From positions 1 to 50,945 of the forward strand of contig JYFJ02002786.1 of assembly GCA_000934665.2 (NCBI GenBank): DNA of 50,945 bases, read 5' to 3'. Shown piece after piece: positions 14,887-43,752 of this stretch. The DNA is from Catajapyx aquilonaris. Taxonomy: Eukaryota. A model generated the notes under the pieces. It saw only the letters and a program-made list of their open reading frames with translations, was not told the DNA's origin and searched no databases. Position 1 is the first letter of the stretch. The number at the start of each line of letters is the position of its first letter. A program made the translations under genes and the position numbers.

Positions 14887-17615
14887 CTAGTTACACTTGC
14901 CATGATACGTTCTTGCCATTAGACAAAGTAAGGCTATGAGGCGGCATGCGATAATGAGTGCCAGGAGACAAGCTATGTCTAAGTAAAAATTGCTTTCGCT
15001 GAAACTTCGGCTGTGTAGAACGCTGGTGCCGTCTGGTTGACACGGTGTGCCTGGTGGGCCACACTCAATATTGTCCACACCTGCCCACTGGTTGACGTTT
15101 AATGCTTCGTTCGCATAAAAATAAAATGACATGTATTTCACCCAAGAGAAATACACCGGTATTGATCTGAAAAATATTCACATACAGTATTACTTTGCAA
15201 TCATCTCATTCCGTACACAATAGAGACTTTCTGAACTAGTACGGTAAGTCTCTAATATATTAAGTTATACTTACGCGACATTTAAAAAGAAGCCTCCAAA
15301 TATGAGGAATATAGTGATTAAAGTGTCGCTCATAGCAAATACATATTTTATGTTCTGGTTCATGCAAGATATCATGTAACCTGTAAATAGAAATAAGAGC
15401 AACTGTTGTGTTAGTACAATATTATTCATTGATTGAAATCTTACTTTTCACGTACCGAAAGAAACTGCAGAATTGGCTACCAATACTATGATGACCACGC
15501 ACATGATGAACCGCTGGATATCTGGATTTAAGCCAATTAAATAGTACGCAATGCATGTGTAAGTGACTGGCGCTATGACAAATATTGGGAGATCCGCCAG
15601 AGTTTTGCTTAGAAAATATACATCCGTCCTGTACATTTTCATCGAATTTTCTAGCAGAAAAACTGGCAATTCCTCGCAGAAAACCTGTGGGAACAAAAGG
15701 TTAAGTGTTAATTGGATTATTATCTTTTTGCATCTAAATGTTTCATGCTCTGTTGAATGCAAACTTAACAAACTGGCCAAATACCTTGCAAAAAAATTAG
15801 GAATTGAGTATCATAATTAATTAATTATTATAATAATACCAATTTCTGCACATACCGTTGCGACAGCAATCATATTTTGAAATGACATGTTTCCTATGAG
15901 CATGACAAGTGCTCCGCTGATGTTCATCACACCTTCCTGATTAAACTTCTGCCCGAAGTAAACACTCCCACATATTAGCGACAAAAGCTAGAAAACATCA
16001 TCAGGTTTCAAATGAACATGTCCGAAACACATAGCTTAATTTAAAAAATAAAAAAAAACATACGATTGCGTGCGCAAATCGAATCTTCAAGACAATTGGA
16101 TCTTTCCGGACGCTCAGCCAAGATCTCCATAAAACAGCCCCGAATTGCTCTGTCCACGGCATGTTGTATGAAGGCCCTCCGTCTTTAACAGCAGCAGTAG
16201 GAATTTCCTCTTTAACGTCAACAGCTTGAGAGTCACTATGACGTCGAGCTGACTTGAAATCTTCCTGTTCCTGGTAGACAGCACGGAGTGTCTCGATGCG
16301 ACCTCTGCAAGCCTCCACACAGCCCTGTTTGACCGTGACCTGATCCACAAAGAAATCTGATGGATTGTAGTTAGGCGGACACACGATTCCCTGAGAAGCG
16401 AAGAAGTCGAATGCCTCTTGGGGACTCCCGCAGAAGACGATTTGTCCATCTGAAAGCAGCAGCATTCGGTCGAAAAGAGAGTAGACTTGAGAGGACGGCT
16501 GGTGGATGGTGGCCACGATGCTCTTTCCTCTGTCGGCCATTGATTTCATGGCTTGCACCACACTCAGAGCCATGAAGGAGTCCAACCCTGAGGTGGGTTC
16601 GTCGCAAAACAGAAGCTGAGGGTCGGTCAGTACTTCGCAAGCAAAGGCCAGTCTCTTCTTCTCACCACCTGATATTCCTTTCAACCGACCGACTACGCCA
16701 ATCATCGTGTCTGCACACTTGTTTAATCCAAACTGGAAAGAGCCATTGGTTTGAAAATGTACAAGAAATTCTATTTTGAACAAATACTCACCTCTGATAT
16801 CACTTCTTCTACTCGCTGCAATCTTCTGCTTCGAGGTATACTGTTGTCCATTCGTACTAGTGCCTGTCACAGTGTCAGAGAAGTACCGTCAGACGGGATG
16901 AGATTGTGCCACACATAAAAATTTATATCTCCCCCTCCCTTAGAGAGGCTAATAAAAATTTATTATTTTCACACATAAACTGAAAGGTGCGATGTGCAGC
17001 AATGTTGCTTACGAAGGATGTTACAGTATAAATTATTCTGGTTTTCTCGTATGAAAAACCGCAAAATGTGGCACGGCAATCTCATGGCGGTATTGTCGTT
17101 AAAATATAGCCTATCTACAAGCGAGTTTCATATAGGCCAGACCAACCTGGAAAATGAGCTGTTCTCTAACAGTGAGAGTTCCGATGAAGAGATCGTTCTG
17201 TTGTATGTATCCAGATGTGGAAGAAAGTATTGTCTGATTGACAGGCTGTCCATTCATTCTCCTTTGACCTGTGACCTGTACGTTGGAAGCCTCGTTTTGC
17301 AGTGTGAGGGCGTTGAGCAAAGTTGTCTTTCCTGCCCCACTAGGACCCATCAAAGCCAAAAGTTCTCTTGGACGTACTTCGCCAGACACTGGTGAAAATA
17401 AATAGTAACATAACTCGTACGTCATATTCCTCCCAAAAATCCACTTTACACTTACCATTTTTCAGGATCATTTTGGGGGTAGAAGTCGAGCTGCCTAATT
17501 TTTTTCGTCTGAAAGGACACCATTGAGGGAACCACTTGGACATGCCATCAGGTTTTTCTTCCACTGACACGTCGATGTTGTTCCATGTGTAAGTTATTCC
17601 TTGTTCTTGGTACAT
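14887..17615 (-). CDS. white: ABCG half-transporter, white-like (multi-exon)
   Basis: ITYTWNNIDV start; Walker A GPSGAGKTT; GYIQQNDLFIGTLTVREQLIFQ; small exon 16792-16863 ALVRMDNSIPRSRRLQRVEEVISE; signature ISGGEKKRLAFACE; CDEPTSGLDSFMA; TIHQPSS; CPPNYNPSD; TM exons FCEELPVFL, FGGFFLN, SWVKYMSFYFYANEALNVNQW. ABCG is secure; white versus scarlet orthology is less so. Confidence 0.85.
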
Positions 17616-18897: not shown

Positions 18898-21632
18898 TCA
18901 AATGGTGAAGTCTTCCATCATGCCACTGTCGCCCTTGAATTCGCCCTCGGCGTCCCTGCTCCTCTTAAGTATGGCTGCTGGCGACTCCCTCTTGCAGAGC
19001 ACCTGGACGTAGACTTGCAGCACTTCCAGAAGGGTGGTCTCAACGTTGAACACCGGGCAGAAGGGCATCCTGGAGGTGAATCTGAAGTTCTTGAGCACGT
19101 TGTTCATCCCAATGGGCAGCGCATAAGCGCTGTGGTGCACCAGCTCGTCCAGGGTCTCCGCAGTCATGGTCCTCCTCTTCCAAAGCACCATGCCTCTCTC
19201 CACGTCCGATCCAGGCACCGTCACGTCCAGGAAGAGGGCCAATATGAACGAAAGTATCATAGGGTTCGTGATGATGAGGCGGATTAGGACGTCGGCATAG
19301 TCCAATCCAGTGTGGAAGTACTTCATCGCGTCTTTGTGACTTTCAAGATACTCCGTGCAGCCCTGGAAACATTTTTCGGATAAGGCTATATTGTGTCAGA
19401 CGATTTGGCTCATTTTCTCACCAAGGACAAAAGTAAGACGACTCCTGCCAAGTGCTGGTTCCGCCTGTTCTTCATGTCGGCGTACTTGAGGAAGCCCATC
19501 CCTTGCGCCAGAGTGTTGGCGTACAGCACGGTCATGACTGCGGCCAGGATGGGCTTGGGCATGTGGATTATGTAGTACGACAGCTTCGGAGAGAATGCCA
19601 GGAAGATCAAGATGAGTCCCACGGAGTATCCCACCCGTCTGGAGGCGACCATCGTCATGGTGAAGCATCCTCCTGAGGTCCTGTACCCGACCGTCGATCC
19701 GAGGGAGCCCCACAGGCCTCCAAAGATCGTCCCGATGCCGTTGATGCCTATTCCCCTGTTCATGGCGTGGACTGGAGGGGTTGAAAGGCCGGATGCCACG
19801 GCCACGGCATAGTACGTGCCCACGGAGGTCAGCATGTTTGCCAGGAGGGACACCAGCAGGGGAAGGACGTAAGGGAAGGAGGGAAACTCCGGGGCGCCGA
19901 ATTCACCTGGTGTTCAGAAGAATATGTGTCAGAGTTTATTATAGTCTTGTCCGTTGAAATGTTTGTTAACCTGGAGAGTTCATCCGGAACCACAGCCCTC
20001 CTGCAGTGTCGTCGTACGGGGTTACTGCAACTTCGCCCTTTTCGGTGAGTGTGTTGGGCAATTTCTCGAGGCCGACGATATACCATATGGGAAGCACAAT
20101 TGCCAAGGTTAGGTGAACCTATACCATTGCAGTTTTTGTAACGGGAGGAAAGCAATAATGTTAAACAGGTAACCATTTTTTAAAATTGTAATGATATTTT
20201 TACACTTACAGAGTAAAGTTGAAAGAAGTAGTGACGCTTGAAGTGCCAACGGGAGCTCTTGGAAGAGGAATGAGGGATTCGGATCTTCACGTTTCCCATG
20301 ATAAAGGAGAAGAAACCCATGAGGCCTATTGTCCTGAAAGTATTTTAAACCGGATTTACCAAAGACCCACCAATAACGTGGATCTGCCCAGTACAAAATG
20401 CAAGACCCAATAACAGCAAAATGTTAGGCTAGAGACTTATCATAAAATTCATCAAACCGAGGCAATATATTCTTACATAAGAGAGATGTGCAAATACGAT
20501 TTCATGTAGCTGATTAATTGCCTGATCATCATAATTGGCACGATCATGAGGCTGGTTCCGATCACTAGAGGCGAAAGGCTGTTCAAGATGATGTTAGTCA
20601 GACCTGAAAATATGAAAACGCATATGCAATACATTCGACTCTAATGCTGGAAGGGCATTACCCTATTAGCTAGTATTTTATAAGTAGTCTAACCTAACGT
20701 GCCAATAAGAAATTCCATTATTCCGGTTATAATGACGCATCCTTGGAAGGTGGCTAAGACCTTGAGGAACCTCTTTTCTATCAGCACTTGGGACCAACCC
20801 CTCGTCCTGCTGCATGTCAGCCTGTGCTCTTGAGGAATCACAGAATTCACTATGTGCAGGATGGTGAGCGTATGTGGAGTATCAGCACCTGACACCGTCG
20901 GAATTCTGTAAGATTCGCAACCAGTTCTCACTTTAATGGCATTTTCTTGGAGAGATGTGATGAAGAGCATGTCGTCCACTCACCTGACGCCTACCAAGGT
21001 TTGTGTGAAATTGATCACTCCGGTGATAAAAAAGCATGATGCCAGGAGCGTCATGTAGGACGACAACATAGGCGCACAAAAATACGGCTCACTGGCGTCA
21101 AATACATCCCTCATGTAAAATACTGCCACAAGACAGTTCTGAAAATTTAATCGTAATTCATTACGAATACAGGAGTTGTGGGCATGTATTATCTTCATTA
21201 TTAAGTCTTACCTGAGCGGCGGTGATGAAGCAAAAGATCCATCTCGGGCTGTCATTCGGCTTGTAAATGAGATGCTTTACAAATGACTTCGCATCGAGTC
21301 CAGGTATCGAATGAGTTAGAGAGAGACGCGACTGTCTCTGAGACAGGCCCTGTCAAATTACAAGAAACTGTATATAGAGATATGCTTTTGTTCATACGGG
21401 ATTGCCGAAGATTCGCGTGTTTCATTATAGGATAATGACTATAGAGTGTCGGGCAGTCCCAAGACCGAGATGTGTCAAAAATGCTATTCCGATAATAATT
21501 TTAACTTAATTGCTCGGTTATAACGCAGGACCAGCAAAAACAAACCTTTTCTTCATAATATGATTTTAGAGACGATGCTGAACTATCAGGAGGCGTATAT
21601 TCTTCTCTACTACTGCCATGCACTTGATCCAT
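18898..21632 (-). CDS. SLC23 / nucleobase-ascorbate transporter (NAT) family member, divergent (multi-exon; an upstream exon is possible)
   Basis: Spliced reading gives LIYKPNDSPRWIFCFITAAQ|NCL, FFITGVINFTQTLVGVR, FQGCVIITGIMEFLIG, LTSVGTYYA, PPVHAMNRGIGINGIG, VASRRVG, GMGFLKYADMKNRRN, LALFLDVTVPGSDVERG, YALPIG...MPFCP, all SLC23-type landmarks. Confidence 0.85.
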
Positions 21633-23374
21633 TCTGTTCCAGTCCAACCTTCGAAATAAATAGCTCACTGACAATATCAACTCCATGACAACAACCCTCT
21701 CATCAGTTTTAGAGACTTTTTTTCCATTATAATGGTGTTATCATGAGTATTATCAGGTGGAAGAGAAACAATGTGTTTGGTTCCTACATTTCAGTGGCAG
21801 CGTCATTTTTTCAGTAAGACAAATATGGGTCATCCTGTACTGTACATCAGGCGATCCGTATTTCAAGAGAGGTTGTAATAACCCGAAAGAAGAACTTATT
21901 ACATGCATGTGTGAGCCAGAATGAACAAAGATTTTCGTCTTAGAATAACTCCAGGTACACCTACAGGTAGAAAAGAAGTGCACACCTTTGGCACTACATT
22001 GTATATGCATGCAGGCCAGTACAATCCAATTACATATATGCTGAATAATCAATTGCATAGGTCATAAAACGCGCCTTCATTTATTATTACATTTCGCAAT
22101 ATCCGAGAGTATGCTGTAATACTCCGTATTGTCTCACAGACCTCTTTCTGTATTGCTGATGCCTGTTTTATCAGATGTGTCAATTGGCTGGTATTTAGGG
22201 GATCCAGGTCTTCTGATGACACCCACAACCAAACCGACAGATCATTGATCAATGGTGGCAGCCAATCTGGTGTCCACTAAAATATTCAAGGGAGAAGGAT
22301 GGGAAAGAAAGAAAGATGTTGTGCCCAGTCTGAAATACAAACTATCCCCGAGATGTCCTGGAATTGACTGGAGAAAACCCCTAGTCAGGGCCATATGACT
22401 GCCCAATAAACCCTAAATCTCCTGAATGACTATTGGCCCGCTAAGGCCTAACCTCCTCTCAAGAGAATTAGTTACCTCAGTCGTCCAAAAATAAAGCTGT
22501 CCTCATAGTTCATGGCAACACACGCGTATTTCCTATCAGATAGTCATCTAACTTCCAGGATACCTTTATGACTTGCGAGTGACAAAATTGCACCACCATA
22601 ATTGCTTCATTATTGTTACTGAAGATAACCTCGCCTTTATAGTATCAGAGAACTTCAAACTCATAAAACTACACAGACATACTCCAAAAATGTGGAGATA
22701 ATTACAGGTTAGCAGCATCCTCTGCCCCCCCTCCATTCTATACTCATTCGTCGCATTTTAAAAAACAGAACAAAGTTTTTGGAAAAAAATCTGACACCAC
22801 TAATAGATTAAAACTAATTTAGCCACATGTTATTACAGAGCTTCACTATCCATGATAACTACACCACCTGCAACCTAACCTGTAATAATCAGACTCACCA
22901 AAATTGACATGTACAGTACCAGAGGTAAACACTTTTCCTAAAAACACAAAATGCTGTATTTTCTTAAGGACTTGTACAAAACACACTGATCATTGAAACA
23001 CAACACCAAATATGCACCATGATTGTCAAAAATATTCTGAACCTTACAAAAAGAGAACTACAGTATGGTAGACTAATCACTATTTTGTTGATCTCAGCCG
23101 AACCTCCAGAAGCTCATCTCATTCAACAGCCTCCCTCACCTGACACCAGCAGTAATACTGACTTTTCTCTTTCGGAATAGATTCTGGTTTGTTAACCTTA
23201 GCAGCAATGTATCAGCCACACTCCAGCACCAAAGTAAGTCCTGGCAGAATTTGTATCCAGTAAATGCCTTTTACTTTTCATAATTATATTAATCTCAAAC
23301 ACTTGTTTGTCTGCAAAAAAAAGCAGATACATCATTTGACCATGATTCTTCGACCATTCTGTGCAGAGTACTTT

Positions 23375-26300
23375 TCAGGGATCTACAAAAGAGATCAGGA
23401 TATAACGAGTGCCTGTTTTGACAGGCAGACCTTCATGATAGTGAGTAAGACGTCCAGGATGCATCAGCAACCATCCTGGACGGGTGTCGGTAACACTGCA
23501 GTTGTACCGTACAAATCTGCAACCACCACCCTGAAAGATTACAAGGGTCCATAAGTAATGTTAGTAAAATTTACAAAATAATTCAGTACTGTACGAGTTG
23601 TGGGAACATACCTCATAATCTACGCCAAACTTATTGAGAGCAACATTAATGGTGTAAGTGGAAGAGTCATGATGGGGACGCAAGGCTGGCTGCTCTTCAG
23701 GCTTGTAGCGTACCACAAAGTTCATGGTGGCTTGCGGTGGCTGAAAAATAATTCAGATGTGGTTTCTAATACAAGTTCACAATGCAGTTGATTTAGTACT
23801 GTACCACAACCATGCACTCCTAGGACTGTGCTAAATAATAAGACATTCTGCAACTACACGTCTACAAAATAATGTCATTCATTTTGCAAATCCATCACCA
23901 TACAATTATTCTTTCACCATCACTTTCATGTGTGTAAAGATGACCAACCCTTGATTCAGGCTCTGGAAATAATAACTGTCACCTGCATCATCAATACCAT
24001 TGGTACCAAGTAAGATCAAGAGCATTTTAAAAGTACCAACACAGGTAGTCCATGAAGAATGAATAAACCTGAGTTAAATGAAATGTGGATGGATTGACAA
24101 ATAAATATCTGCAACCACACCTATGCGGAACAGCAAAGGTTAAGGAAATTAAAAGCTGTGCTTTCCCTTGAGAATGTGACGCAATGTCTTCATGCATAGG
24201 CTCACAGCCAGTACTTCAATCCATGGGCATATACTTACCCCTAAACACATACCACCCCCTCAAAAAAACCACAGTGGTAAAATAAAAATATAAAATAAAT
24301 GTGAATAAAGACATAGAAGGGGACAGTGGAGGTTGAAGAAGTCTTAGACTCTTCCACCAACCCACACCAGCACCAGGACCCACAAGGAAGAAAATGCTTT
24401 TTTTGTTTTCCTTACATCATCGTCATAACCGGGATAGACTCGCAACAGCAAGGGGAGGACGTACGATTTTAGAATCTCAAGCCAGTGTTCATACAGTCCG
24501 ACTTGCTCCATGTGAATGTCAACAGTTGGAACTGGGTCATAAGTGTATCCACCCTGTTGAGGAGAGATGGAGGAGTTCAGGTATAGGACACCAATAACAG
24601 GTAGTTCACAGGCTTTTTTCACTGTGCTTTGGCTCATAAGAAGGAAGAAACCCCACGTTCTTCCTTTTTTTTTCAGATAGAAGGAACAGCTGCTGACTGC
24701 TTTAGGAGAACATACTGGGACAGCGTTAAAACAACTTATTATAATCACAGCAGTATGCTAACTACCACACTCATATTTCTCAGCATTCAAAATGCACTTA
24801 TTTTATGTCAGACATAGCAGCTATTCTTTCACGATGGTCCCAGTGCCGACGGTCTCCTTCGATGGCCTTGCTTCAGACAGCACACAACATGGACAATCTT
24901 TGCACACTTGAATGCCTGTACATACATAATGGAAATAGCCTGTGAAGGCTCGGCTCTGCAGAGGCTCTATAAACAGCCGAAGGATTTCCAAAAACACCTT
25001 CTCCATTCCTATTTGCTTCATGTGGATGTCCACCGTAGGCACGTTTTCATACCCGCCATCCAGCCTCGTATCCTGTGAACCAGTCTCACCATCTTAACAA
25101 ACAGAACCTGCTTTTTTTTGCAGTGGGGCTATTAGGCATTTACATTCCTTGTTTACTCTTAGCCTTGTGAGCAACTAAATTAATCTCTATATGTCATATC
25201 AAAAGTGCATTTATAAATTATTGAAATTGCATCTGAATAATCAGGTAATCAAGCTTGAGATAGGCTATAATTTGATCAAAATTAACATTATAATACACAG
25301 AATATGTGTTGTCATTTGATGTTCATAATTATGTCAATTAATTTGTCAATAATATTTTTTACGTCCAACTTACATAGTTGCTGCCGTCTGACCACTTGCC
25401 ATAATTCTCCATCTCGGCAATCAGTTCATTGCACCATACCCTCTTGAATACAGGAAACCAGTAAACATCAGGACAGGGCTGCAAAGAAAGCAATATATTA
25501 TTAGGAACCTGTCTCACAATTTGAAATATGTGACAAAATATATTTTTTAAAACTTACTTCCTGGATAGTGTTGTTCATATTCAAACTCTGGGAGTAGTTC
25601 TCGTGCACGTATCGCACCTCCCAATCCCAGCGGTTGTCAAACAGCTGGTACAATTCATTGTGAACATGAGAGGTGTCGAAGTTCTCAGCATTGATCAAAT
25701 GCCCCCAGTCCACTCTGTTTGTCACGTACATAAATATGTCCTGAAAGACAGTGTCAAGGTAAAAACCTATACATGCTTGCAAAAGGGCAGATAACTAGTA
25801 CCTTGTCTCGATTATTCAGACAGAATGCCATATCTGCATCCAACAAATTGCTGATAAAGCTTGGCCTGCTTTCTTTCTTGCGGATAATAGTGGCATTTAC
25901 TAAATAGCTGCCAGCAATGAATGGGACATTCCACAACCCTCTGGAAAGTAAAGAAGCACTTTGTTAATGCCCTACCAATCAAGTGATGGCTTATTATCTC
26001 AAATATTCAAATGACCCTGACATGGCTCAAATTGCCCGTCAACCTGGAAAAGCCCCTCCTGTGACAATAACTACTGAAGTTTGCAATTCCCACAATCAGG
26101 GGCAGACCTTGACAATGACATGTCAAGTTGAAGGAGTGCAAAAGTTCAAATCCATTTCAGCCTCAATTCGCAGCAGCGTAGTAGGGTGCATGAGATAGGT
26201 TAGTGGTATGAAATAGTCCCCTCCTCTCCACGCCACTCTGAAGGAAATGGCTTTGGATTTAATGAGGAAGCATCACTGATGGCCAAGGGCCGAGGGGGTT

Positions 26301-29300
26301 GGTAGGGGAGGAGGAGGAGGCCCCACCATTGGCAGAAGGGAGACAAGAATAGTCCAGAAGCAGCAGACAAAGCAGTCATCTGACAGGCTACGAAGGTGGT
26401 GGCCTGGTTGTCGTCCAACCAGAGGAAACTACTACTGTGTTATGGTGCTGGAGGATCCCAGATAGACCGGAATGAGCCCGAGACTGCTGCAGCTCTCCCT
26501 TGTCCTAGCCCTGTTGCTGATCCTGCTGCCCGACACTGCCTATGGACGGAGGGGCAGGGGAAGAGGAAGGGGTCGAGGTTCCAGCACTAGGATACAAACC
26601 AGGATCATTCCCTACCGAAACACAGCCAGTGCACAATATTACGACAACCCCAACGTAAGTCAAGTTTGTCTATGACTGCAGAGTCAGCTTTTAACTGAAT
26701 CGATGGCCACAGGGAGCCAGAATCCTGGAGGCATCCCACTTTGAAGCTGATTACATCCTGGGAAGAAAGATCACCTTTTCCTGCATCGCTCAGGGTGAAC
26801 CCAGGCCACACATCACCTGGTTCAAGGACAGTGTTGAGCTATACTTTCACGACTTTTTCCAGGTGGCCCTTTGCGAAAAAAAAAATTGCATGTTTCTAAG
26901 CGGCGCCTGTTCACTTCCGCTGTCTTGCAGGTACATGAATTCAAGGAAGGTGATGACACCATCCGATCCAAGATGGAGATTGATCCGGCAGCTCAGATGG
27001 ATGCAGGATTTTACGAGTGCCAGGCTGACAACAAGTATGCGGTTGACAGGAGAGGCTTCAGGACCGATTTCCTGGTTGGTGATTCCCCTTTTTCGAATAA
27101 GTGCTGCTGCATGATAGTCACTAAAATCGCGTCTCTTTTTCAGTGAGCTCAGCTTCTCCAGCCTAAACCATGCACAGCACTAGTTTGCCCCAAATATATA
27201 TCTCAAAATTTTACTATCCTCCAAGGCAAATAAATCTGTTGCTGAATTATGAATAGTTGTGATTGCCAGAAAGAACCTAACATCTCTCTTCAGGCTTGTA
27301 ATGCATGTTTCACAAATGCTGTAGGTCATCTCAATATAGTTCATGCCCATCCCTCAGGTCGTTTAAAATTTATGGCCGGGAGGATGTGGCCAGAATCATA
27401 CCTAAGTGTGCAACGAAAGGTCGCCATATCACGACAATGTAATAAGTCACGTGTGATTAGTGACGCACTTGCTGAAATACGAATGTCCCATTTCGCATTT
27501 TTTTCCTCGACATTTTTTTTTTTCGGAGCATAAATCTGTGCACATGTACATCCGCATTGCCGACCATCATCGATCCGGGAGGCAGCCGAAGAAGTAAAAG
27601 TTTAACGCCCTAGTCCATCAGGTATGTGTTACCAATGTCCCTTAGGTTCCAGGGCAGCCCCATCCGCCACCTTCCACCCCCAAACCCCCGAAACCCCCGT
27701 CGTCCCCCTGCCCTGCCCTCCCCGATATAACCCAACCTTCAGCAAATCAGTGGAAGAGCAGAGGTATAGTAGGTGGGGAAGGGGGACATTGCGTCAGAGG
27801 AACCAGAGGATACGCAAGCAGATCCGTATGGCGGGTTGCTGGATGACATCGCTTCTGTCTCCGCTACTCATCCTTTGCATTCTCCTGGTGCTTTTGGACA
27901 ACTCAGGTGTTGGCGCCAGGAGGTTCACGGGGCGCCACCATGTCAGACCACCCATTTACAACAGGGTCCACAAGCCAGTCGCAGGACGATGGCACAACTC
28001 GGAGGCAGAGCGGTACTACACCAATCCTGACGTATGGTTTGCCTTCTTTTTTTCATTCATTGCTTCCTAACATTATTTGGACGATTAGGTGACACACTGT
28101 TACATAACAATCGCATCTGTCATATTCACCTTCTGATGAGTGAAACCATTTTGGAAAATAGGCAACTTGAACGACTGTGCGGTCACATGTCAATGGTACT
28201 TGAAATAGTGCATCGGCTTTACACCAATTCGCTAATGTATTCTGACTTTTCGGCGTACATGTGTGACGGAACAGGGACTGAAAAGGGTTAGCAGATTTCT
28301 TGATAAAAATAGCGATGTAACTGGTGCAAAATCGCTCTACTCAAACGGGAAATCGAGTAGTTGTCATCAAATATTAATCCAAGTGCAGATATAAGTAACA
28401 TTCGGAAGCAGAAAAAAATCACGATGACACAATCGGCTTATTGACCGCCTTCGGTCCGTATCCTTTTTTAAGTATATACCATGACGATAAGCTGCGTCGA
28501 GTGATGTGTATTGCTGGTGTACTACGCGACAGGATAATTTATTGCCGCCATTACTCCGCATTAAAAACTCGCGATGGCTGAGTACAATATGGTACAGCTA
28601 CTCAGCAAGACATCATTGCATGAGAAAAATATCGTAATATCACGATCCCTAGCACAAAATAATGTAGCGTGTGGCACAAATTAACATTCGGCATGATCCT
28701 GTTACGTAACACAATTGCGAGAGAGGAAATTGTCTCTCTGCTCTCATTGGCACACGTGACAACTCGCACAAAAATCAAATTGGACTGATTTTATTATAAT
28801 AAACAGCAGTTCATTCACTACAAGCTTGAAAGTCAGCTCGCAAATTGACGGCAAAAATCTTTCAGTGTTGTTGCTGGTACTGTACGTACACGCCACATTA
28901 AGTCCTTGACTTTGACCATTCGATCACCCATTTAAAAAAGGGTATATTTTTGGTAAAATGTTGCAACGCCATCTGATTCGATAATCACTTCCCCTCAGGG
29001 AGCCAAAATCATAAAATCCTCCCACTTCGATCTGGAGTACATGTTGGGCCATAAAATCGCCTTCATTTGCGTGGCCATCGGGAGCCCACGTCCGCATATC
29101 ACTTGGTTCAAGAATGGCATCGAGATGGTCAATCATAAATTTTTGCAGGTTTGTCGCCCAGCCAGCTACATACGCACCTGGCCTCTTGACTGATTTGCAC
29201 TCATCACCATTTCTAGGTGCACGAGTGGCAACAGGGCGACGATCAACTCAAATCCAAGATGGAAATTGACCCAGCAACACAGATGGACGCAGGGATCTAC

Positions 29301-32300
29301 GAGTGTTTGGCAAACAACAAGTACAGCCTGGACAAACGCACTTTTCGCACTGATTTTGAAACCACGTTTGATTAGACGAGCACTGCCAAGAATGTTTCTG
29401 CATTTATCTCACTCGTTATATTTTGTTGTTGTTGTTATTGTTGATGTTTTTCAAATTCAGGATGCCTTTTGGGGCAAGCGTGTTGGTATGCTAAAATTGT
29501 GATCCAATCAGGGTTCTTGCAATGTAGGGTCTTCTCGCATGCAAAAGTTGATGGGGTTTGAGGGGTATGGGGCTTATCTCGTTTTCAGAGTCGTGGCCTT
29601 GAGGCCTCTAGGGACCAGGGTTATCGCAGGCAACTTGGCGGTTTGGTCGCGTATCACGAAGGCACGATTTTCCAGAATGGTTTGCTTCCTGACAATTTGT
29701 TGCCTATCGATCCTCCCTGAAGGTCGCTACCAAATTGGCCCAACGAGCAGCATCCTGGGGGACTTACCCCACCCTGTGCCAACCCTCCTCATCACCAACA
29801 ACCAATACTGTTAATGAAACCATTCTCACCTATTACCTTCCATCAATGTCACGTGCAGAGATTCAAACAAACACCAGGTAGAATACGCATCACCAGCCAT
29901 CTGATGTTAACTTATTTATGCTTATCCTCTGAGGTGACAATCTATTTTGGATCCATGGTAGTTGATTATAAACTTATGGATCGAATAAGTCTTTATATTA
30001 TTGCTCATTTAGTGAGCAACTTAAGAGTTTAAAAAGTGGTTATGTCCAGCAAGGTAGAAGTTTGATATTATTATATGTGGTGTTTATGGGTCCTATTTCT
30101 CACAGCACACACATTGCCATTCCACATATTTTAACAATATACTTGCAATCAGTACTTTCAGTGTGCTACGTTGTGTCTTATAGTCTGTGGCAAATGCAAT
30201 CATTCACTGCAGTTGCTCCTTTGACGTGGTCTTAAATATTCTGGATACTGATAGCCTATTAGCATTCGTACATGCAGAACAGAAACAAAGTTCTTACCTT
30301 CTCTCATTCTTCACTATTTCCATGTAATCAGTAGAACGTGCGTAGAAGCCTTCTGCTGTAAGCGCTCCCCAGAAATTGGACCAGGCTTTGTATGGCCGCA
30401 CAAGCATTGGTGCCACAACAGCCCTAGGGATTTGCCAAAAATTATCCTTGACAAATACTGCACTGGCAAAACAGAACTCTAAATTTTATATGCAAATGTT
30501 GATTGACATTACCTGTTCTGCTCAATGAGTAACTTCAGTGTATGAGGATTATCCAAATGTGCAATAGAATCCACAGAGAGAAAGTAATCACAGTCCTTTT
30601 TCAAGCATGTCTCCCTGCAAAGCAAATAATTTTGTACATTATTAATACCATAACTAAGAGTGGAACTTCTCAACATAAAAGCAGACTTACAGAGCAAGAT
30701 TTCTGGCATGCCATTCCTTGATGTTATCAGTAACGGTTATTTCTTTCATGCTTCGGTAAGCCGCTTTATTTTCTTCTATAAAACTAGAAATGAACTTCAC
30801 ATGATATTCTGCCTGTAAGAATATGAGAATAATGGCATTAATTCTTGTTGTCACTATAATCAGTGTTCATGAACATTATAATTGCAGGTGATCATAAGCA
30901 CTTACGGTGTTGTGAATAAATATATCAATCTTATTCTTTGGGTAGTCCATGAGAAGGATTTTGTGAAAGAACTCCTCCAGAAATGGTGTAGGCTGCTCAA
31001 TAAAAACGCCCAAAAGTACTAGAGGATAATCCTCTTCCTGTAATAAATATTGCACACTTATTTGGAGAAACCCATTTCAAACTGGTACTGCTGCTTGAAC
31101 ACTTCATTCAGTTACCTTGACTTTTTCCAGGCTGATCATGTTATCCCAGCAGGACAAGCACCCATCATCTTCATTCCAGCTGTTTGCCAAGTAATTTCCC
31201 AGATTGTTCAGCACCACTTTAGAAGGACCATTTCCATGCAGAATAAGAGGTACAGTGTTGTATGCTGTATTTTGAACATATGCTTCCTTTCCTTTGAACC
31301 GTAATTCAACATCGCCTGAAAAATTCGCGCCAATATTTAAGACATATTATTCCAATCAATGTCAGAAGCTACAAGTTGTATTACTCACCAACTGCACCAT
31401 TCAAATTTTGAAATATCTGCGCCTTATTGTCCAATTTAATATTCAAAGTTTTTCTCAGTTCTGTATTCAAGAACGCCTTGGTGTAAAACAACTGGTCATC
31501 ATCGTTATCCTTCACCTCTGCATTTGACACAATCGAGTACAAGTCCGGTGCGTATCCCATAAAGCCTGCAACGTATTTATACATTGTAAATTATGGGAGT
31601 AATGGTCGACTTGTGGTTGGGCATGTCGCGTGTTAGGCTACTCACCTCCAGAATTCAGGTAACGTTTTCCTCTCAAAACCGCAGGGTATTCGGAAGCCAA
31701 AGACTCATCGGGCCAGCAAAACCCTTCTGCCGAAAACACGACTCGTGCATTCAGTTGGGTGAACTGCGACAGAATTTTATCCACGGTTCCTAGAAACACC
31801 ACGTCGTAGCTGCAAAAAAAAAAAAAAAAATTAAAAATTTAATCCCCAAGTTCATTTGTGCCCCTCAGTTCGATCATATCATTCTTTACCTATCAGTAAA
31901 CATGACGATCTTGTTACTCATAGTCTTGTAATTTTCCAGCTCCCTTTTAAGTAGGTTAATTTTTTGACCCCCTCCTGCGAATTTTTTAACTTCCCCGCCT
32001 TTCCACGCCTCTCCCATTCCCAAAACCTGGAACGAATTCGGAAATGATGTCACACTCTCGACACGCAAATCCTCGAAATTTTTACACCCACCTTGACTGG
32101 AATCTTGTAAATTTCAGCCGAACGCATGAACCTCTTGAACCCATCGGTTTCATTCGTAGCCACCGTAAGTACTAGAAAATCTGTGGAGTGAAGAAAACGG
32201 GGACATTATTGCACATACTCTCATGTGTATCCATTTATTTAGTACACATGGCGGTACCCTCCTTTGCAATAAGAGGACAGGAAAAACAGGTGTAGTGAAT

Positions 32301-35300
32301 ACACGAGCTGACGAGGTCATTCGCTCTTCCTCCGGTTCCGTTATGTTATACCAGCGGGCAATTTTTGTCTGCGAACCTACTTCCAGACACAATCGTGGAC
32401 ATGTCATATGCATTAATGTCATTCATCCATAATGGAAAATGCAGCGTTTGAGACTCAACAGGATTCGTTTTGGTTCCACGTCAGCGTCTTTGAACGAGAC
32501 CCAAATGACCTCCACTTCTGAGGAACATATAAAAAAAAGGAGAAGCAACACAAAAAACCTGTTTCTCATTCCTCAACACGTGTGGCGAGCAGTGCAACCA
32601 ACTGTGGCACTACATGAACCTAGGTCAAAATCGCTATACATTATAAGGATACAGCTACCACTATAGTCACGTGCCACGTCACATTCGGCTATTTTGCAGT
32701 CCGTGCTTATATGACCTGTGATACGAGACATGTTTTCCTTTTCCTGCAGAAAAGGGCTATTGTTCGATTCATAAGAGGCAAATTATACTGCAACATAACC
32801 CTTAATGTGACAGTGGGACTGTACTCATTAGGACGAAACTTCGGTTTATTTACGTACCGGTAGCTATTTTTATAATGCGACAACTAAGATCTCATTCATA
32901 GGGGAGGCTACAATAAATATACCAATTACAGGCCTCAACTGGTATCATGCCAAGTGTAACTCTGATACAGTTCGTATAATTATCGTCATTATTATTACAG
33001 TATAACTAGACGACTTTGCAGTACATTGTCAGGTATGCAGCCGGAAGGATGATAAAGCAAAAGGTGGCCGTTACTTCCAGACACAATGAAAACCTGAAGA
33101 GGGCAATAATTCACTTATTGGTAACTCACCTGGGAGGTTACTGCACGCCATAAAAAAGGTGGATTTTATTATCATTTTTTAAAAGTGACACAATCATGCA
33201 CCAACCAGTCAGGCAATGAGGCGAATCTCGACCATTTTGTGATAATACCCGATTCCTTTCACCAAAACTGTTAATTAAATTTTCTAGTTGTCCCATTGCA
33301 CAACTCACAAAGTCATTAGCAGCAAGAGCAGGAAATGCTGCTTAATCACAGCCCCGTAGTTTTTTTCAGGAAGCTCCTGATAATGAGTCTGAAAAGGAGG
33401 ATTCAAGACATGTCGCCCTGTGAGTCTCTCCAAGGAGACCTCAGAAGCTTATTACGACGATTTCCATCATTTCTCGCCTGGCTGGGGACGGAAGCTCCCA
33501 CGGCTGCAACTCTTGTGGAAAAAAATAATAATAATTTGCAAGCTAAACCTAATGGTGACGCAGAATTTGCTCGACACTTTTATTTAGACATTTTTGAGGT
33601 CACGAGTTCCCATGGCAGATTGCAAATGTGAACTTGGTCACCCTGTTATTCCATTTGGAACACAAGAGGCGTTGCACTGCTGGCAATGAATTTGCAAAAC
33701 AGCCCATCAGTTTGCAAGAAAAAAAAAGGACTTGTCACGATTGGGGTCGCATCAGTGCGCTATTGACCTCGTATTTTCTTAAGTTTGCCCACTGTTCTTA
33801 GGCCAGTGAACTCGTGAGTACACTGTAATCAGAAGGTACCGAGCAGACGGACAAAAAGTGAATTCGTGTGAACCTTCTCAATTTTCGTCTTAAGAATCGG
33901 AGGGGATTGGCCCTAACATATGGCAATTTCCAATCCCGATGTCTGAATGGCTGCCAACCACCACAAAACAACACCTTCTGGCTTCCAAGCACAAAAAATT
34001 CAAAGGGTGAAAAAATGTGGTTCCCGTGTATAAGCTTCAGTATAGGTAGGTGCATGGGTATAGTAGGAGGTTCTTATACTCTGAGGGCCCATCATTCCGG
34101 TTAAGGTCAGTGACCGGGCTGGGGCGTTGGCCTTGACCATGCCAACCTCTTCCGTGTTTCTTACGTGGCCACCTTCACGTAACAACATTTATGCCGAAAT
34201 CTTCCCTTTCACTCTTTCCTGCTTCAAATTAAATTCAGCACATTCAGTAGGTAATCAAGCAAATATGCCCATGATTTTTTTTTAAGTTGCAATAAATGAC
34301 ATATTGAGCACACACTGTGTTACCCAAAAGTAAGCTTAAGAAAAATTGAGTTAACTACACTGCATATTTTAACAATCCTAATTTAAATTCGGTTGCTAAA
34401 TATTTTAAATTTATCTTTAACTGTACCAAAATTGTCTGTCGAGCTCGGGATAAATCCACACATTTATTCGCCCAATGGGCTAAAGAATTACTTCTTAAAT
34501 ACAGAAAATATGGGCGGAGTTTTCGACCCACTGCTAGTTATTGCTAACTTAGCAGTACCATTGCCAACACCGCTAAGTTAGCAGTAACTAGCAGTGGGTC
34601 GAGAATTCTGTATTTAAGAAGTGCTAACTTATCAGTGCCAGTGTTGGAAATGGTACTGCTAAGTTAGCAGTAACTAGCAGTGGGACGAAAATTCTGTCTT
34701 TAATGTTAATTAATTAACTGCACTTATTAAAATCATCTTGAATCATCCTAAAATACCATTAATTCAGTACCACACGACTGAACTTCTCAAATAATGATGC
34801 ACACTTTTTTTTTTAAAGAAAGTACCCTGTATAAATGCATGTAAAACCAACATGGCCTAAATCTTGCAAATTGAACGTGACAGCTGTGAATTGTTGCGTT
34901 CAGTGCTGGTGACAACGCAAAATCGGAATTACCACGCGGTGTATGCTTGCAAAATGCACATTTTTTTGTTTAAAAAAATAAATAAGAGAGCTGGGGAAAC
35001 AGCCTTGTCATTCAGTGGACCCGAACCAGATTCCGGATACAAACTAGGCGGGAGGTCGCCCCCGCGTCCTCACGATTATCGCGATGTTTATTTCCATGCA
35101 AGGGCGTTAAGAACAAACTATGCAAGACTGGCGCAAGGACGACCTAATTGGTTACACTGCAGCCAGGCATGACTTGACCATCATTTCACACCCAACCCAG
35201 CCAGAAAATTCGCCAAAATATATGGGCATTTGTGATATCTATGCGGTTTGGAGCCTGTCAAATTTCATCTTCGGATATTTCTGGACACGCCTGAAGGGCA

Positions 35301-35864
35301 GCCCTAACCTACTTCCCAGTTGGCACCAGTTGGTGATCCGAAAGATCTTTCAGCATCCTCCAGAGTGAATGTATAGGAAGAGGTGATCCGAAAGATTCTT
35401 CCACAGCATCCTGGCCAGTGAATGTAGTGAAGAAGTGGGTGCGAAAATGCTTCCTAACGTAAACAACCTTCAGGGGGCATTTTTAAACGTGGCCTAAAAC
35501 TCTTTTTTAGGCGAACATTGACCCGGACATTACCGTGTACCTTCTAAGTTATTCCTATTGCCCACTCTTTTCACGGTGGCTTCCGCCTGATGAATAGATC
35601 TGTTTGTAGGGAGTGCCGCTCCAGGAGTTTCACGGTCTACAGGTGCAAATCGATGTGTGAACTCCGCATTTAGCATGATCGTGATTGTCCCTCAGCGTCT
35701 GTATACCCCGACAGCCCGACCTTGAAATGTGTATCCTCCACATCAGAGAAACACTCACCGTCTCCTGCTCCGGGTTGCTCTTCCTGGGCCTGGACCATCG
35801 CGAGGACCCCCATGAGGAGGAGGAGGAGGGTCCACCTCCACCTGGTCCAGAGCACGGCTGCCAT
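23375..35864 (-). CDS. Plod: Procollagen-lysine,2-oxoglutarate 5-dioxygenase / lysyl hydroxylase (multi-exon)
   Basis: Signal-peptide exon 35759-35864 splices in phase 1 to [18 protein letters not shown] (from 32180); then [133 protein letters not shown]. Confidence 0.96.
24416..24553 (-). CDS. Plod: Duplicated alternative Plod exon B (paralog of exon A at 24926-25072)
   Basis: Pyrimidine-rich acceptor ctctcctcaacag, donor gtaagg, 138 nt, phase 0-0, no stop: [46 protein letters not shown]. Confidence 0.8.
26472..27146 (+). CDS. Secreted single-Ig-domain protein, oig-4-like copy 1 (nested in Plod intron)
   Basis: Exons 26472-26654, 26713-26862, 26931-27074, stop 27144-27146. Signal peptide, RGRGRG tract, then [39 protein letters not shown]...[35 protein letters not shown]. 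Confidence 0.9.
27828..29375 (+). CDS. Secreted single-Ig-domain protein, oig-4-like copy 2 (nested in Plod intron)
   Basis: Exons 27828-28031, 28999-29148, 29217-29375 with the same intron positions as copy 1: [40 protein letters not shown]...[35 protein letters not shown]. Confidence 0.9.
34490..34700. repeat. Compound inverted repeat: one left arm, two right arms
   Basis: cgacccactgctagttattgctaacttagc is complementary to gctaagttagcagtaactagcagtggg, which occurs twice (~34572 and ~34658); acttcttaaatacagaa pairs with ttctgtatttaagaagt. Confidence 0.8.
35332..35433 (+). repeat. Two-copy imperfect tandem duplication, ~50-bp unit
   Basis: ggtgatccgaaagat...cagcatcct...agtgaatgta occurs twice in Plod intron 1. 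Confidence 0.75.
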
Positions 35865-38800
35865 GGTGTCCACTACCACTAGGAGATGCGAGGATGAAGA
35901 ATCTAATCCTTCACTGAACGCCGACTGTTTCCTTGTGGCCTTCCTTTCCTTCCACACCATGCGTCCTCTCCTCTCCTTCTCTTCGGCCACCAAACGAGGG
36001 AGACATCTACAGGCCGCCGGGGATGCACACTGCTGGCATCTGGCGGGGGATTAATGCAAAAAAAAAGGAGGGGTGTTGCACCCGCGCGATGTCGCGAATA
36101 TTGCTTCCGGATAAAATTCGCACTTTTCTATTTTATTGGAGGGACAATCACACAATATGTGACGGGGATATCGGTTCAGGCGAAAGTTACAGGTATTGCT
36201 TCCTATATTGTTAAGGGGGATGGGCGTACATACTGTAATTACTGGAGTCGGTTGATTGAGGGGGGGGGGGGGGNTTAAAAATGAGATTCCTGATTCAAAT
36301 CGTTTAATAGTGGTTTTCACTATTGTGTGACCAACAATTCGCCAATAAATTGGTTCAAAATGAACGTGATTGTGAATGTGGAAATACATTGCTGTATCAG
36401 TTGTAATTATGAGGTGTAATATGATCCGTCATCTGCACCTGCGTTTTAACCCAGAGAGCAGAAAGTAGAGTCCGAATTTTTAGGCGCGAAAAACTCCTGA
36501 AATAGGGACGAAAAAAAGTTGTGGTGTGCATTTCGAACTGGGCGACCTTACTTGAGCAAATCTTGCGATAATATTGAGGGCATCTGATGATGGACTTGGA
36601 CTACTATTGAACAGTCCGTTATGTAGTAGATTATACAGCCCCAACTGCCTCGTTTTTAGATTTAATGAAAGAATGCAAAAAGGCCAACAGACAACAGCAA
36701 AACACTATGCTTAGACTATACCGGAAGTAAATGGGCGTGAAATGGGTGTGAAACTGGCACGAATTTGTGCCAAATATTTGTTATTTACACCGGATTTTAA
36801 TGAGATGACTACTCCTCTCACTCTCAACTGTCCTCGAAAAATGTATACTGAGTTTACTTTCCAACAATAGTTCTGTATAACATTTTTTAAAACTCACAAT
36901 AATATTGAGGTTGAGAGACTCTTCCCATGGGTTGGTTTGAAATTTAACCACTGCTTTCAGAGGAGTCAGAAAATGTCCTGTACTTTTTTGGTAGTGAGAT
37001 TCTGTGTGAGTGAAATTTCTTTAGATTGGATTTAGTTCCACTGGAAATGGGGCATTACATGTGCAATTATTGTTTGTCCTGTACTTCAGGAAGGCGTAAT
37101 AAATAAAACATTGCATAACAACTAGGAACATAGAGAAGTGGAGACCGCCACATTTCACAAAATAATATTGTTGCCATTCCAGTAACACTATACATCATTT
37201 CTTAATTTTACGCCGCAGCAAGTGAACGGTGGCAAAAACCTTTAGAGAACTATTCTTTAAAATTATGCAATGCTATAAGAGGCCTACTTGGTCACGGTGC
37301 GCTGGTCTTCGGTTACGTCCCATCACTTCTAGGCGACAATTATAGTGACACTTCTCCAATGACCCATTTCCCATGATGGCCACAAAAAGCCCAGAGAATG
37401 ACGAGGGAGTCTCCGGCAATGGTTTCTCCTTTTACTTGGAGTGAAGAATGTCCATTTCCGTGAAACCGTAAAAAGTCAGCTTTCCCGAGACCAATCGGAT
37501 TCAAAGACCCCAACGTCATGGGCATCCGGATTAGTCCAGCCATATAACATACAGGCTTTAAAGTACAGTAGGCTTACACATTTATCATACCGAACAGTTG
37601 AGCAAGTGACAGTAAATACTCTAAAAGATATATTCCACATATTATAAGACTAAATAATAATATTCATGTTACGGATGCGTGAACCGATTTTGTGTCATCA
37701 TTTTGTCAGTTTGAGCGGATGTTTCATTATCCCTTATGATGTTTTTTTTCTTTCTTGCACGTATTTTTCTAGGGTGTCTGTAAGAAATCTCATTTGACAA
37801 TAAAAAGTTATATATTACTTTGAGGACGATGTTAAACTAAGCCTAAATATATTTTGCCTGAAATGTGTATATGCATACAATAACCCTCATTGCCAACTGC
37901 GATACTTAAAGATATCCACTTGCTTTTCGCAGAAGGAAAGGTATAGGAGGTAGATGAAATATTCATCAAATATGTCATCAAATAATGCGGCATACAAATA
38001 CAGGTTGCTTCAGGGTTTTGCTTGATATGCACTTGAATCGGGACATTTCCGTTTCCTCAGCATACAGTATGCTTAGCTGATATAAAGCTTGGGCAAGTAA
38101 CGTATACATAACAGCAGTAAAGCATACACGCAACAGCAGGTTTCATATTGGCAACATGATCCATTTTACATGAGGTGTTACTTCCTTACTCACTGTCAGT
38201 ATTTTTGAGAAAGTGTCGAAGTAAGATGATTATCAAGGAATTACCCAATATTGTGCAGATAATTATTTTGTATTGTTCTTTTTATCTGATTTTGATACAG
38301 TATGCTCTCCTTAATATAGCCTACTGACCATGAATAATTGCATAAACTCCAAACTGGGAACTCGCTCGCCACTACTCCAGAAACTATTTTAAACTGCTAC
38401 AATGCTTTGCGGTTGGGCAAAGTGCTTGGAAATGCATGGGTAGACAACCGATGTGCTCGGGTGGCATTTAGCATCCACAAGGAGAACGGCATTAATGTAG
38501 CAGATAAGCTGCTCTACACTGACTGTATATTATGTCGGCCTACTGTGCTCTGTGAAACGGAGTTTGATGAGATAATATGTCAATATGAGAGAATGTGATT
38601 GTATCCCTTGGCATTTATAAAATTTAATAGTGCAGGTCAACAGGTAAGGTTGTATAGAACAAATTTAAAACATTTAATATTAGTAATATTATAAGTAGAT
38701 TTTACTTATGTAGCAGTATAAAACTTGCAGAATATGTGTACGTTTGATTGCTGTTTGCGGTAGTTTGCGGCAAAATCCACCAAAGAACCATCAAGCCACT

Positions 38801-41890: not shown

Positions 41891-43752
41891 GGTGACGGTA
41901 TCTATCGAAATGTCACAAAGGTATAACAGTCATTAAGGTACTTCAAGAACGTACGAGTATCAGACAATAACTGATATTTTGAGACATTATTAACAATACC
42001 ATGCATTATTAGTTTATTACAAATGCAGGGTGGTAGAGTACACTGCCCCAAGCAAGAGTCATTACTTCTTATATTTGCCACTACATTATTGGCCCAAGTC
42101 CGAATTGAAAAGATATTAAGGAATAAAATAATTGTTGTGAGTTTACGGAAACAACCTATTTATATCGAAGAAACCCCTTGAAAGAGTATCAGCCCGCATA
42201 GTCACCCGTCGCGATTAAAAGTACTGAGTGGATATATTGTGCACATTTCAAAAGAAGCCGCATATGTAGAGTAAAACAAGCCTATACTGTTAGGCAATTC
42301 CATGATTATTATTATTGATCCCCAACACCGTTAAAAAATACAAGTGTATTATTCCTCTTGATGTATATAGATCACTATATTTTCAGGGATAGCATTCTCG
42401 CAAATAATAATCAGCAAGTCTACTTCAAACCTGTTTGCGAGTAGGGCCTAGAGCACGAAGTAGATCATACAGGCACAGTCTATCTTTGGCCACTGAGCAA
42501 GTTTTTGATAGCTTATCACAACTTATCCATACATTGAAAAGCACCTGAATTTCCTTGTCAGATTAGGTTTTTTTAAAGGTAAAATCACTAAAATGTGTAC
42601 AAGTAGGCCTATGGAAGGAAATATGGTGTCGTTGTACAAACCGTTAAAACGTCTGATAAATTTTGCAGGCATTTCTGAGAAGGCTCACAAATATTATTGT
42701 TGTCGAAAAAAATACACTATAGTGTCCAAACCAAGCCCATGGAAAAGTACAGTAGGCTATAATTACAAAATAAGAAGAATTAAAGCATAAGTGAGTTTAT
42801 CTGGTGGAAACGCTCGTAAATAATCCACGATTTTTTTCAGTAGTAAGGTACAGAAACATTTATTATGTAGCCTACGCATTAAGTGAATCACAGTACAGGA
42901 TGTTATAATATTGCACAGACGAGTTCAATAGGCTACTTTACCTCAGAGAAAAAAAGATAGCAACATCTAATTAGAAAATTTGAATAGTTGAGCAAGTTTT
43001 CCACCAACTTGATTACTGAAAGTAGACCAGTACGAAAATATCTGAAAATAATTTAATCAGCCCAACATATTTCTTTGGGTTCTCTAGATTACGAAGGTCA
43101 AGAGATTCTATGTATTTACGGAATAGTGACGTTAGCTCAGACGTCAGTTTAAAAAAAAAATACACTGCAGCTATTGAAACAGCAATGGAAACAACCAATT
43201 CATATGAATAATCGTGCAGCCTTATCTGTGGTGACCGATGTACCCCGATTGTTAGCAGCCATGGTGCCATGGCAATAACTGCTGGTGATTTCCCGTCACC
43301 CAGTATCAGCACAATAAACCCATCGTGTGGTGGTATTAACTGCAATTTTCAGAAGACCTGTAGTTAGTCATCAAAGGCCTTCCCAGATGTTCAGAGATAG
43401 ATTCCTGTGGAAAAGCCACGCATTCGTAAAATCCCGCCATATATGACCACCGAGCAGGGGTGCCAACGTTGAATTTCAAGTAAGTCTCAACTGGATTTCG
43501 CACGAACTTTGTCACCTGTGAATTCAGACAATAAATCCGGATGCATCCCCTCCCACTGCCGGGTACTACTTCCCCTCCCCGTACAAAAGGCCGGCTGTAT
43601 GTGTTATCTAAAGAGCGACACAAAAAAAAATCCAGCCAGTCACGCGACTCCTGGCAATCTCCAAAGGGACACAAACACAACAGGCAGGATAAAAACCACG
43701 CGCCTGCCCCTCGCAGCCATCCACTCAAACGGACTGCAACCGGCCTGAGAAG

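Follow-up and report, generated by a model that had tools for sequence, protein, structure and literature searches.

Contig JYFJ02002786.1 of Catajapyx aquilonaris was analysed over its full length of 50,945 nucleotides (the window), and the analysis concerned the lysyl hydroxylase (LH) gene Plod on its minus strand, in which two homologous exons, A and B, lie in tandem between the same two constitutive exons. Taken as a whole, the data are probably best explained by a real and expressed pair of mutually exclusive exons, from which two proteins with different gate modules would be made. mRNAs with A only and mRNAs with B only both exist, in a ratio of roughly 2:1 in the sample used.

Splicing and paralogy of the exon pair

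Expression data were taken from one public run (X1; kind unrecorded) in the form of contigs, which were placed on positions 23000-36500. Of the words sampled from 23300-26100, 35% occur in this run, a share close to the exon fraction of that stretch, and the contigs are spliced at GT..AG borders along the whole Plod gene. Exon A is joined to its neighbours at 25373/25071 and 24926/23740 (depth 7.9, one contig each) and exon B at 25373/24552 and 24416/23740 (depth 4.0, one contig each); from the equal depths we infer that the two junctions of each exon lie on one contig. These junctions have 28-30 letters on their short side, as expected where a k=31 assembly graph forms a bubble. Depth is 9.77 and 11.3 in the contigs of the flanking constitutive exons, the values for A and B add up to 11.9, and the bin depths agree with 7.9 for exon A and 4 for exon B. 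An unspliced contig with a depth of 2.4 covers 25126-25343 in the intron 5' of A. No A-to-B junction was found among the X1 junctions listed. Because the summed depths of A and B come close to that of the flanks and each exon has its own junction pair, mutually exclusive use is indicated. This had been proposed in an earlier note made from the sequence alone and is now supported by RNA-derived contigs that run from the upstream exon through either A or B into the downstream exon, with borders 25374 and 23740 used by both; in X1, B was neither absent nor always included together with A.

The coordinates of the pair and its surroundings are given in Table 1. Exon borders, phases, canonical splice sites and peptides were reproduced exactly as they had been described before. 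The sequence next to exon A reads ...ttcacag before it and gtatgt after it, and that next to exon B reads ...ctcctcaacag (pyrimidine-rich) before it and gtaagg after it, so that the two are tandem homologous exons of similar length and equal phase with their own splice sites, as is characteristic of mutually exclusive exons. A gapless alignment of their peptides spans 39 residues, of which 20 (51%) are identical (E 4e-15), and the DNA is identical at 66/117 positions over the 39 aligned codons. The proportion of differing sites is 0.81 at synonymous positions (pS; 21.5/26.5 sites, saturated) and 0.33 at nonsynonymous positions (pN), and different codons are used at 12 of the 20 identical residues. 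Saturated synonymous sites, a low pN and differing codons point to old duplicates that are both kept by selection on the protein, and they rule out a recent copy or a product of gene conversion. The earlier view of B as diverged yet open and constrained agrees with these values, with the open frame and with the retained VPTVDIH. No third copy of the segment was found when A and B were searched against the whole window by tblastn (next match E 0.15).

Table 1. Exon pair A/B of the Plod gene and the exons and introns around it (positions in the window; nt, nucleotides; aa, amino acids)
Feature	Positions	Strand	Description and evidence
Exon A	24926-25072	minus	147 nt, 49 aa, phase 0-0; canonical version; AG/GT borders
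Exon B	24416-24553	minus	138 nt, 46 aa, phase 0-0; alternative version; AG/GT borders
Constitutive upstream exon, end ...WSDGSNY	25374-25478	minus	junctions 25478/25558, 25373/25071, 25373/24552
Intron 5' of exon A	25073-25373	minus	301 nt, GT..AG; sequence and spliced contigs
A-B intron	24554-24925	minus	372 nt, GT..AG; sequence; touched by candidate inverted repeats I1, I2, I6
Intron 3' of exon B	23741-24415	minus	675 nt, GT..AG; sequence and spliced contigs
Constitutive downstream exon with RPHHDSS (His667, Asp669 equivalents)	23611-23740	minus	junctions in spliced contigs
Last coding exon with THYHEG (His719 equivalent) and stop codon	23375-23529	minus	junction 23529/23611; end of open reading frame

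Exclusive use of tandem exons can be enforced by steric hindrance, by incompatibility of U2 and U12 splice sites, by frame-dependent nonsense-mediated decay or by competing RNA pairing. The sequence speaks against the first three: against a steric block by the intron between A and B, which is too long at 372 nt, against U2/U12 incompatibility by GT-AG at every border, and against policing of the frame by nonsense-mediated decay by exon lengths that are both multiples of 3. The sequence was found to contain 21 inverted-repeat pairs, among which I1 (24790-24817 with 25185-25212), I2 (24605-24626 with 24925-24946) and I6 (24266-24282 with 24614-24630) could loop out or mask exons. The best duplex, between the 5' splice site of A and the intron, has an energy of -24.8 kcal/mol vs -19.7 +/- 3.1 in mononucleotide shuffles, 6/100 of which were as low. 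Pairing energies of the introns were unremarkable overall, with mononucleotide shuffles as low in 73/100 for U-M, 10/100 for M-D, 50/100 for U-D and 6/100 for the 3' end of A against M.

The swapped segment on the LH3 structure

Exons were compared with human LH3 (PLOD3; PDB 6FXK), and PDB chain positions were converted to LH3 numbering with an offset of 23, which is consistent for Asp597, Arg599, Asp611, His613, His667, Asp669 and His719. Exon A alone matched 6fxk_A at chain positions 574-620 (E 8.6e-13) and exon B alone at 581-620 (E 2e-9); the constitutive exons aligned to chain positions 539-571 (25374-25478, E 1.3e-11), 624-664 (23611-23740, E 1.3e-16) and 666-715 (23375-23529, E 7e-22). 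The alternative exon thus corresponds to LH3 597 to about 645, which includes 14 of the 21 residues of the capping loop, its mobile two-thirds, with the next helix and most of the 640-646 patch, and on this alignment it can be described as a gate module complete in itself. Between 597 and 643 every residue of LH3 (PMC6082870, PMC9453210) has an aligned counterpart in exon A. The catalytic Fe2+ triad lies outside the module: RPHHDSS and THYHEG place its residues at chain positions 644, 646 and 696, equivalent to His667, Asp669 and His719 (numbered as in the accessible text of PMC9453210), and since these exons are common to both isoforms, both keep the catalytic core.

Three LH3 papers (PMC6082870, PMC9453210, PMC13382579) describe residues 590-610 as a flexible capping (gate) loop able to plug the active site. 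The loop is locked shut by a second, non-catalytic Fe2+ on His595, Asp597, Asp611 and His613, and in the locked enzyme Arg599 makes a salt bridge to 2-oxoglutarate and mimics the substrate lysine. According to the same papers, the D597A and D611A variants fold normally, bind the extra iron more weakly, turn over about 1.5x in the coupled and 3-5x in the uncoupled reaction, and are less inhibited by high Fe2+ in their uncoupled activity. The 640-646 patch contacts the loop of the partner monomer (PMC9453210), and by cryo-electron microscopy the loop was seen displaced outward without the second iron (PMC11897130). The picture of a closing loop with an Arg as lysine mimic and an Asp in a second iron site, which the earlier note had put forward, is confirmed by what these papers describe.

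The segment is fixed in vertebrates, whereas the window gene has two spliced versions of it, and these differ at the positions just named. Exon A carries equivalents of Asp597, Arg599, Asp611 and His613, the first two being its first and third residues, so that three of the four ligands of the second Fe2+ (Asp597, Asp611, His613) are on the swapped segment. Exon B keeps VPTVDIH, with the equivalents of Asp611 and His613, and the subsequent helix; as had been noticed before, it is without Asp597 and Arg599, for which the alignments to LH3 give no counterpart. In B the loop portion is shorter by 3 residues, and the C-terminal end is acidic (...PGYDDD vs ...TGYFHY in A). The position of His595, in the constitutive upstream exon, is Asn here and also in most of the extracted arthropod proteins (WSDG[ST]N). 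The human four-ligand iron site is for this reason incomplete in both isoforms, and the iron-gate picture put forward in the earlier note needs correction at this position, iron gating in arthropods being an assumption.

In the proposed mechanism, one of the two alternatives would be spliced into each mRNA between the shared constitutive exons, and the A isoform would behave like canonical LH3. The B isoform would lock its loop shut less readily, so that Fe2+-dependent self-inhibition would be weaker and turnover more open or uncoupled. That B is less self-inhibited and more open than A is a tentative proposal; it is drawn by analogy with LH3 D597A from the lack of an Asp597-type ligand and of Arg599, the shorter loop and the changed patch that faces the other monomer.

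The pair in other Pancrustacea and the rival explanations

Homologues were collected in two ways. Searched exhaustively by phmmer against 1.84 billion representatives, exon B had 213 matches at E <= 1e-3, and two copies of the segment were present in 3 among the best 150 of these 213 (Timema podura CAG2059778.1 and two contigs). A full-length search with the 725-aa relative P0153 gave 1429 proteins at E <= 1e-20, the best 120 of which were taken up; the segment was extracted from stored proteins of at least 390 aa plus cluster members. Both copies were found in one model in Darwinula stevensoni (ostracod), Tigriopus californicus (copepod), Dufourea (bee), Camponotus (ant) and Folsomia candida (OXA56714.1), and a partial A/B fusion in Trachymyrmex. 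The order was A then B in 7/7 database proteins with both copies and likewise in the window. RefSeq lists A-only isoforms apart from B-only ones for Tigriopus (XP_059089132.1/XP_059089133.1), Cherax (XP_069940623.1/XP_069940625.1), Procambarus, Daphnia magna (XP_032785138.2/XP_032785142.2) and Daphnia pulex, and B-type entries named 'isoform X2' for Zootermopsis, Thrips palmi, Cloeon, Ischnura and several ants; the Folsomia RefSeq protein has A only. Both alternatives are conserved in other species, and by these protein models the pair is widespread in Pancrustacea and its isoforms are already listed by annotation pipelines. It is no peculiarity of this gene or genome. A full-text literature search, judged from titles and the starts of abstracts and covering main texts rather than supplements, returned no description of alternative exons in arthropod Plod. 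For Drosophila melanogaster, PMC3044864 describes one Plod gene with two annotated transcripts that are distinguished solely by the 5' untranslated region.

The pairs elsewhere resemble that of the window in their position in the protein, their length of about 49 aa and the A-then-B order; the window B differs by its 46 aa and by the missing Asp-x-Arg start. Most B exons elsewhere keep GGYE.VPT.DIH as well as Asp-x-Arg, and they differ consistently from A in the helix (QVGL..., PLQQ) and in a short or acidic ...GY(D/E) end vs ...GY(F/Y)H. Altered loop or His613 positions were found in three B-like open reading frames (P0087, P0106, P0026), and the loop end appears freer to change in B than in A. 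The B exons of Cherax and Procambarus (P0296, P0301) are extremely diverged (PRYKDGPPQ.E...SVGL...) and lack the Asp and much of the VPT.DIH motif. Derived as they are, they are identical to each other at 35/43 residues, which marks the crayfish B as a conserved alternative gate segment.

Two further searches added little. One for longer homologues of exon B gave 10 candidates, none of which scored, and is weak evidence. Metagenomes were scanned with exon B extended by two codons at either end, which gave 2 loci, neither of them useful: L002 is a 25-residue match, and L001, on a 54.9 kb metagenome contig, is intronless, 31% identical to the arthropod protein and no arthropod ortholog. The L001 gene (1501-3381) is Plod-like, with glycosyltransferase and hydroxylase parts and a divergent loop, and may be a collagen lysyl hydroxylase of giant-virus type.

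For the age of the pair, a tree was built from 60 exon-sized rows and 49 columns, in which many forks stayed open. The window A falls inside the Collembola A group (support 96/89) and the window B has Folsomia B as its sister (82/68). One group unites most insect B exons (94/88), with crayfish B on a very long branch, and another the ant B exons (95/98); the B label requires 7 changes on the tree vs a shuffled mean of 17.4. Genes of springtails (Collembola) are also the closest named relatives of the gene. The best matches of the neighbouring exon are a 725-aa protein (75% identity), followed by one from a cockroach, one from the springtail Orchesella dallaii (67%) and one from a crayfish. As placed on this tree, the pair predates the split of Catajapyx aquilonaris from Folsomia. 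It may date to the pancrustacean ancestor, an origin that agrees with the constant A-then-B order and with the features that B exons have in common (QVGL, and an ...GY(D/E) end that is acidic or short); Darwinula, which has both copies, belongs to Oligostraca. Between close relatives B is conserved about as well as A, both for the two crayfish (B 35/43, A 41/51) and for the two Daphnia species (B 49/49, A 45/49).

Several points weigh against mutually exclusive gate modules with an ungated B. The splicing evidence comes from a single run in the form of contigs, in which rare forms are lost, and from the junctions listed, which are all but four; a low level of co-inclusion may occur. With Asn in place of His595, LH3-type iron gating may fail to operate in arthropods at all. 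Asp-x-Arg is kept in most B exons elsewhere (Folsomia VDSR..., insect, copepod, ostracod and Daphnia), so that the switch does not in general serve to remove the motif; its loss is, by this comparison, specific to the lineage of the window. A mutation of LH2 at the Arg599 equivalent causes Bruck syndrome with perturbed activity (PMC6082870), and B could be a weakened rather than an ungated enzyme. On the tree, a single B clade is not rejected (p value of the approximately unbiased test, p-AU, 0.214), and neither is a grouping of every springtail A and B exon together, as would result from duplication within Collembola (p-AU 0.369). Finally, as aligned, B evolves faster than A between the window and Folsomia (B 24/43, 56%; A 37/49, 76%).

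The first rival explanation takes up the third and fourth of these points. It holds that B is functional through the helix and the C-terminal patch, by way of dimer contacts, stability, partners or substrate class, or as a low-activity subunit that tunes heterodimers with A, and not through gating by Asp597 and Arg599. We regard it as unlikely. It would account for the retained Asp-x-Arg of most pancrustacean B exons and for their differences from A in helix and end, and it gains from the mapping of the exon end to the 640-646 trans-monomer contact and from the pathogenic LH2 mutation; yet the missing Asp and Arg are the most striking difference between A and B in this genome, and crayfish B, P0087, P0106 and P0026 are likewise altered at loop or metal-ligand positions.

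A second explanation, that B is a decaying duplicate spliced in as noise so that B mRNA has no function, is very improbable. The lower identity of B to Folsomia and the restriction of the expression data to one run are what it can draw on. Against these stand a share of about one third of the depth (4.0 vs 7.9), an open frame with phase 0-0 and good splice sites, an ortholog in Folsomia with counterparts across Pancrustacea, and a pN far below the saturated pS. The least probable of the three is that A and B are often included together, which the in-frame sum of 147 + 138 nt and the 372-nt GT-AG intron would permit, which some database models contain (Folsomia OXA56714.1, Tigriopus isoform X1) and for which it counts that exclusivity was seen among the X1 junctions listed, but against which speak A and B contigs that each run into both flanks with depths summing to 11.9 vs 9.8 and 11.3, the lack of an A-to-B junction among those listed, and the place in the core of the LH domain where a second copy of the segment would sit.

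Gene context and meaning for lysyl hydroxylase biology

The Plod gene was traced with tblastn of P0153 (its residues 53-725) over minus-strand exons from 32029 to 23378. P0153 matches Pfam GT_PLOD (7e-90) and 2OG-FeII_Oxy (1.6e-11), and the three-part architecture of PLOD enzymes, with glycosyltransferase, accessory and C-terminal 2OG-Fe(II) oxygenase domains, is present. The first exon, with the signal peptide and about 50 residues, upstream of 32205, was not located. At about 36277 an ambiguous base or small gap gives X in the open reading frame translations of both strands.

Two paralogous immunoglobulin I-set genes lie on the plus strand within the 4357-nt Plod intron 25941-30297, at 26363-27143 and about 28957-29400 (Pfam I-set E 5.7e-06 and 4e-06). 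The first of them is spliced (26654/26713, 26859/26928, 27073/27143) and has a depth of 46 in X1, about 4x that of Plod. Other neighbours are an ABCG-type half transporter at 15000-17500 on the minus strand (ABC_tran, ABC2_membrane_7), a nucleobase/ascorbate-type permease at 19000-21000 on the minus strand (Xan_ur_permease, E 1.5e-29) and a granulin-domain gene at 43693-44157 on the plus strand (E 1.2e-11). A near-perfect long hairpin repeat with two tandem occurrences (...cgacccactgctagt...actagcagtgggtcg...) is present at 34526-34700; it reaches a depth of up to about 940 in X1 with many loose contig ends, gave only sub-threshold matches to microRNA families on both strands (best 43 bits vs a gathering score of 139), and looks like a foldback repeat or one of the miniature inverted-repeat transposable element type.

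Among alternative splicing events that alter lysyl hydroxylases, exon 13A of vertebrate PLOD2 (LH2a/LH2b) is to our knowledge the only one studied well. This exon likewise adds or alters a loop for which a capping role at an active site has been proposed (PMC8055892). It differs as a 21-aa cassette in the accessory domain near the glycosyltransferase site, neither duplicated nor mutually exclusive. Another parallel is found in the clusters of tandem mutually exclusive exons in arthropods, to which Dscam and 14-3-3 belong. In that of the muscle myosin heavy chain (PMC2257972), tandem homologous exons of equal phase are used one per mRNA, and splice variants of one gene replace a vertebrate gene family. 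The window Plod resembles such clusters in the first respect and perhaps in the second; it differs in having only two alternatives, for which pairing between docking and selector sequences was not demonstrable.

A further-reaching reading, which we consider somewhat unlikely, is that the pair is an ancient exchangeable gate module of pancrustacean Plod, made of the mobile loop and of the patch on which the partner monomer's loop docks, so that one gene gives two lysyl hydroxylases, and that the B of the window lineage, without the self-inhibitory Asp and Arg, gives a constitutively open, iron-insensitive hydroxylase with a possible substrate class or tissue role of its own. If true, this would be a splice-based counterpart of the division of labour among vertebrate LH1, LH2 and LH3. 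As far as we know, work on the capping loop of LH enzymes has been confined to point mutants of the human protein and to simulations, in which the loop is treated as a self-inhibitory, iron-sensing gate and as an obstacle to drug design. Arthropods seem to offer natural, selected alternatives of this loop, some lineages, this one among them, being without the key Asp and Arg, and comparison of A and B isoforms would be a direct test of the role of the loop in vivo. That Drosophila has no coding Plod splice variants on record may be why the pair went unnoticed. In animals with one Plod gene, the pair would explain how the hydroxylation of collagen lysines could become diverse.

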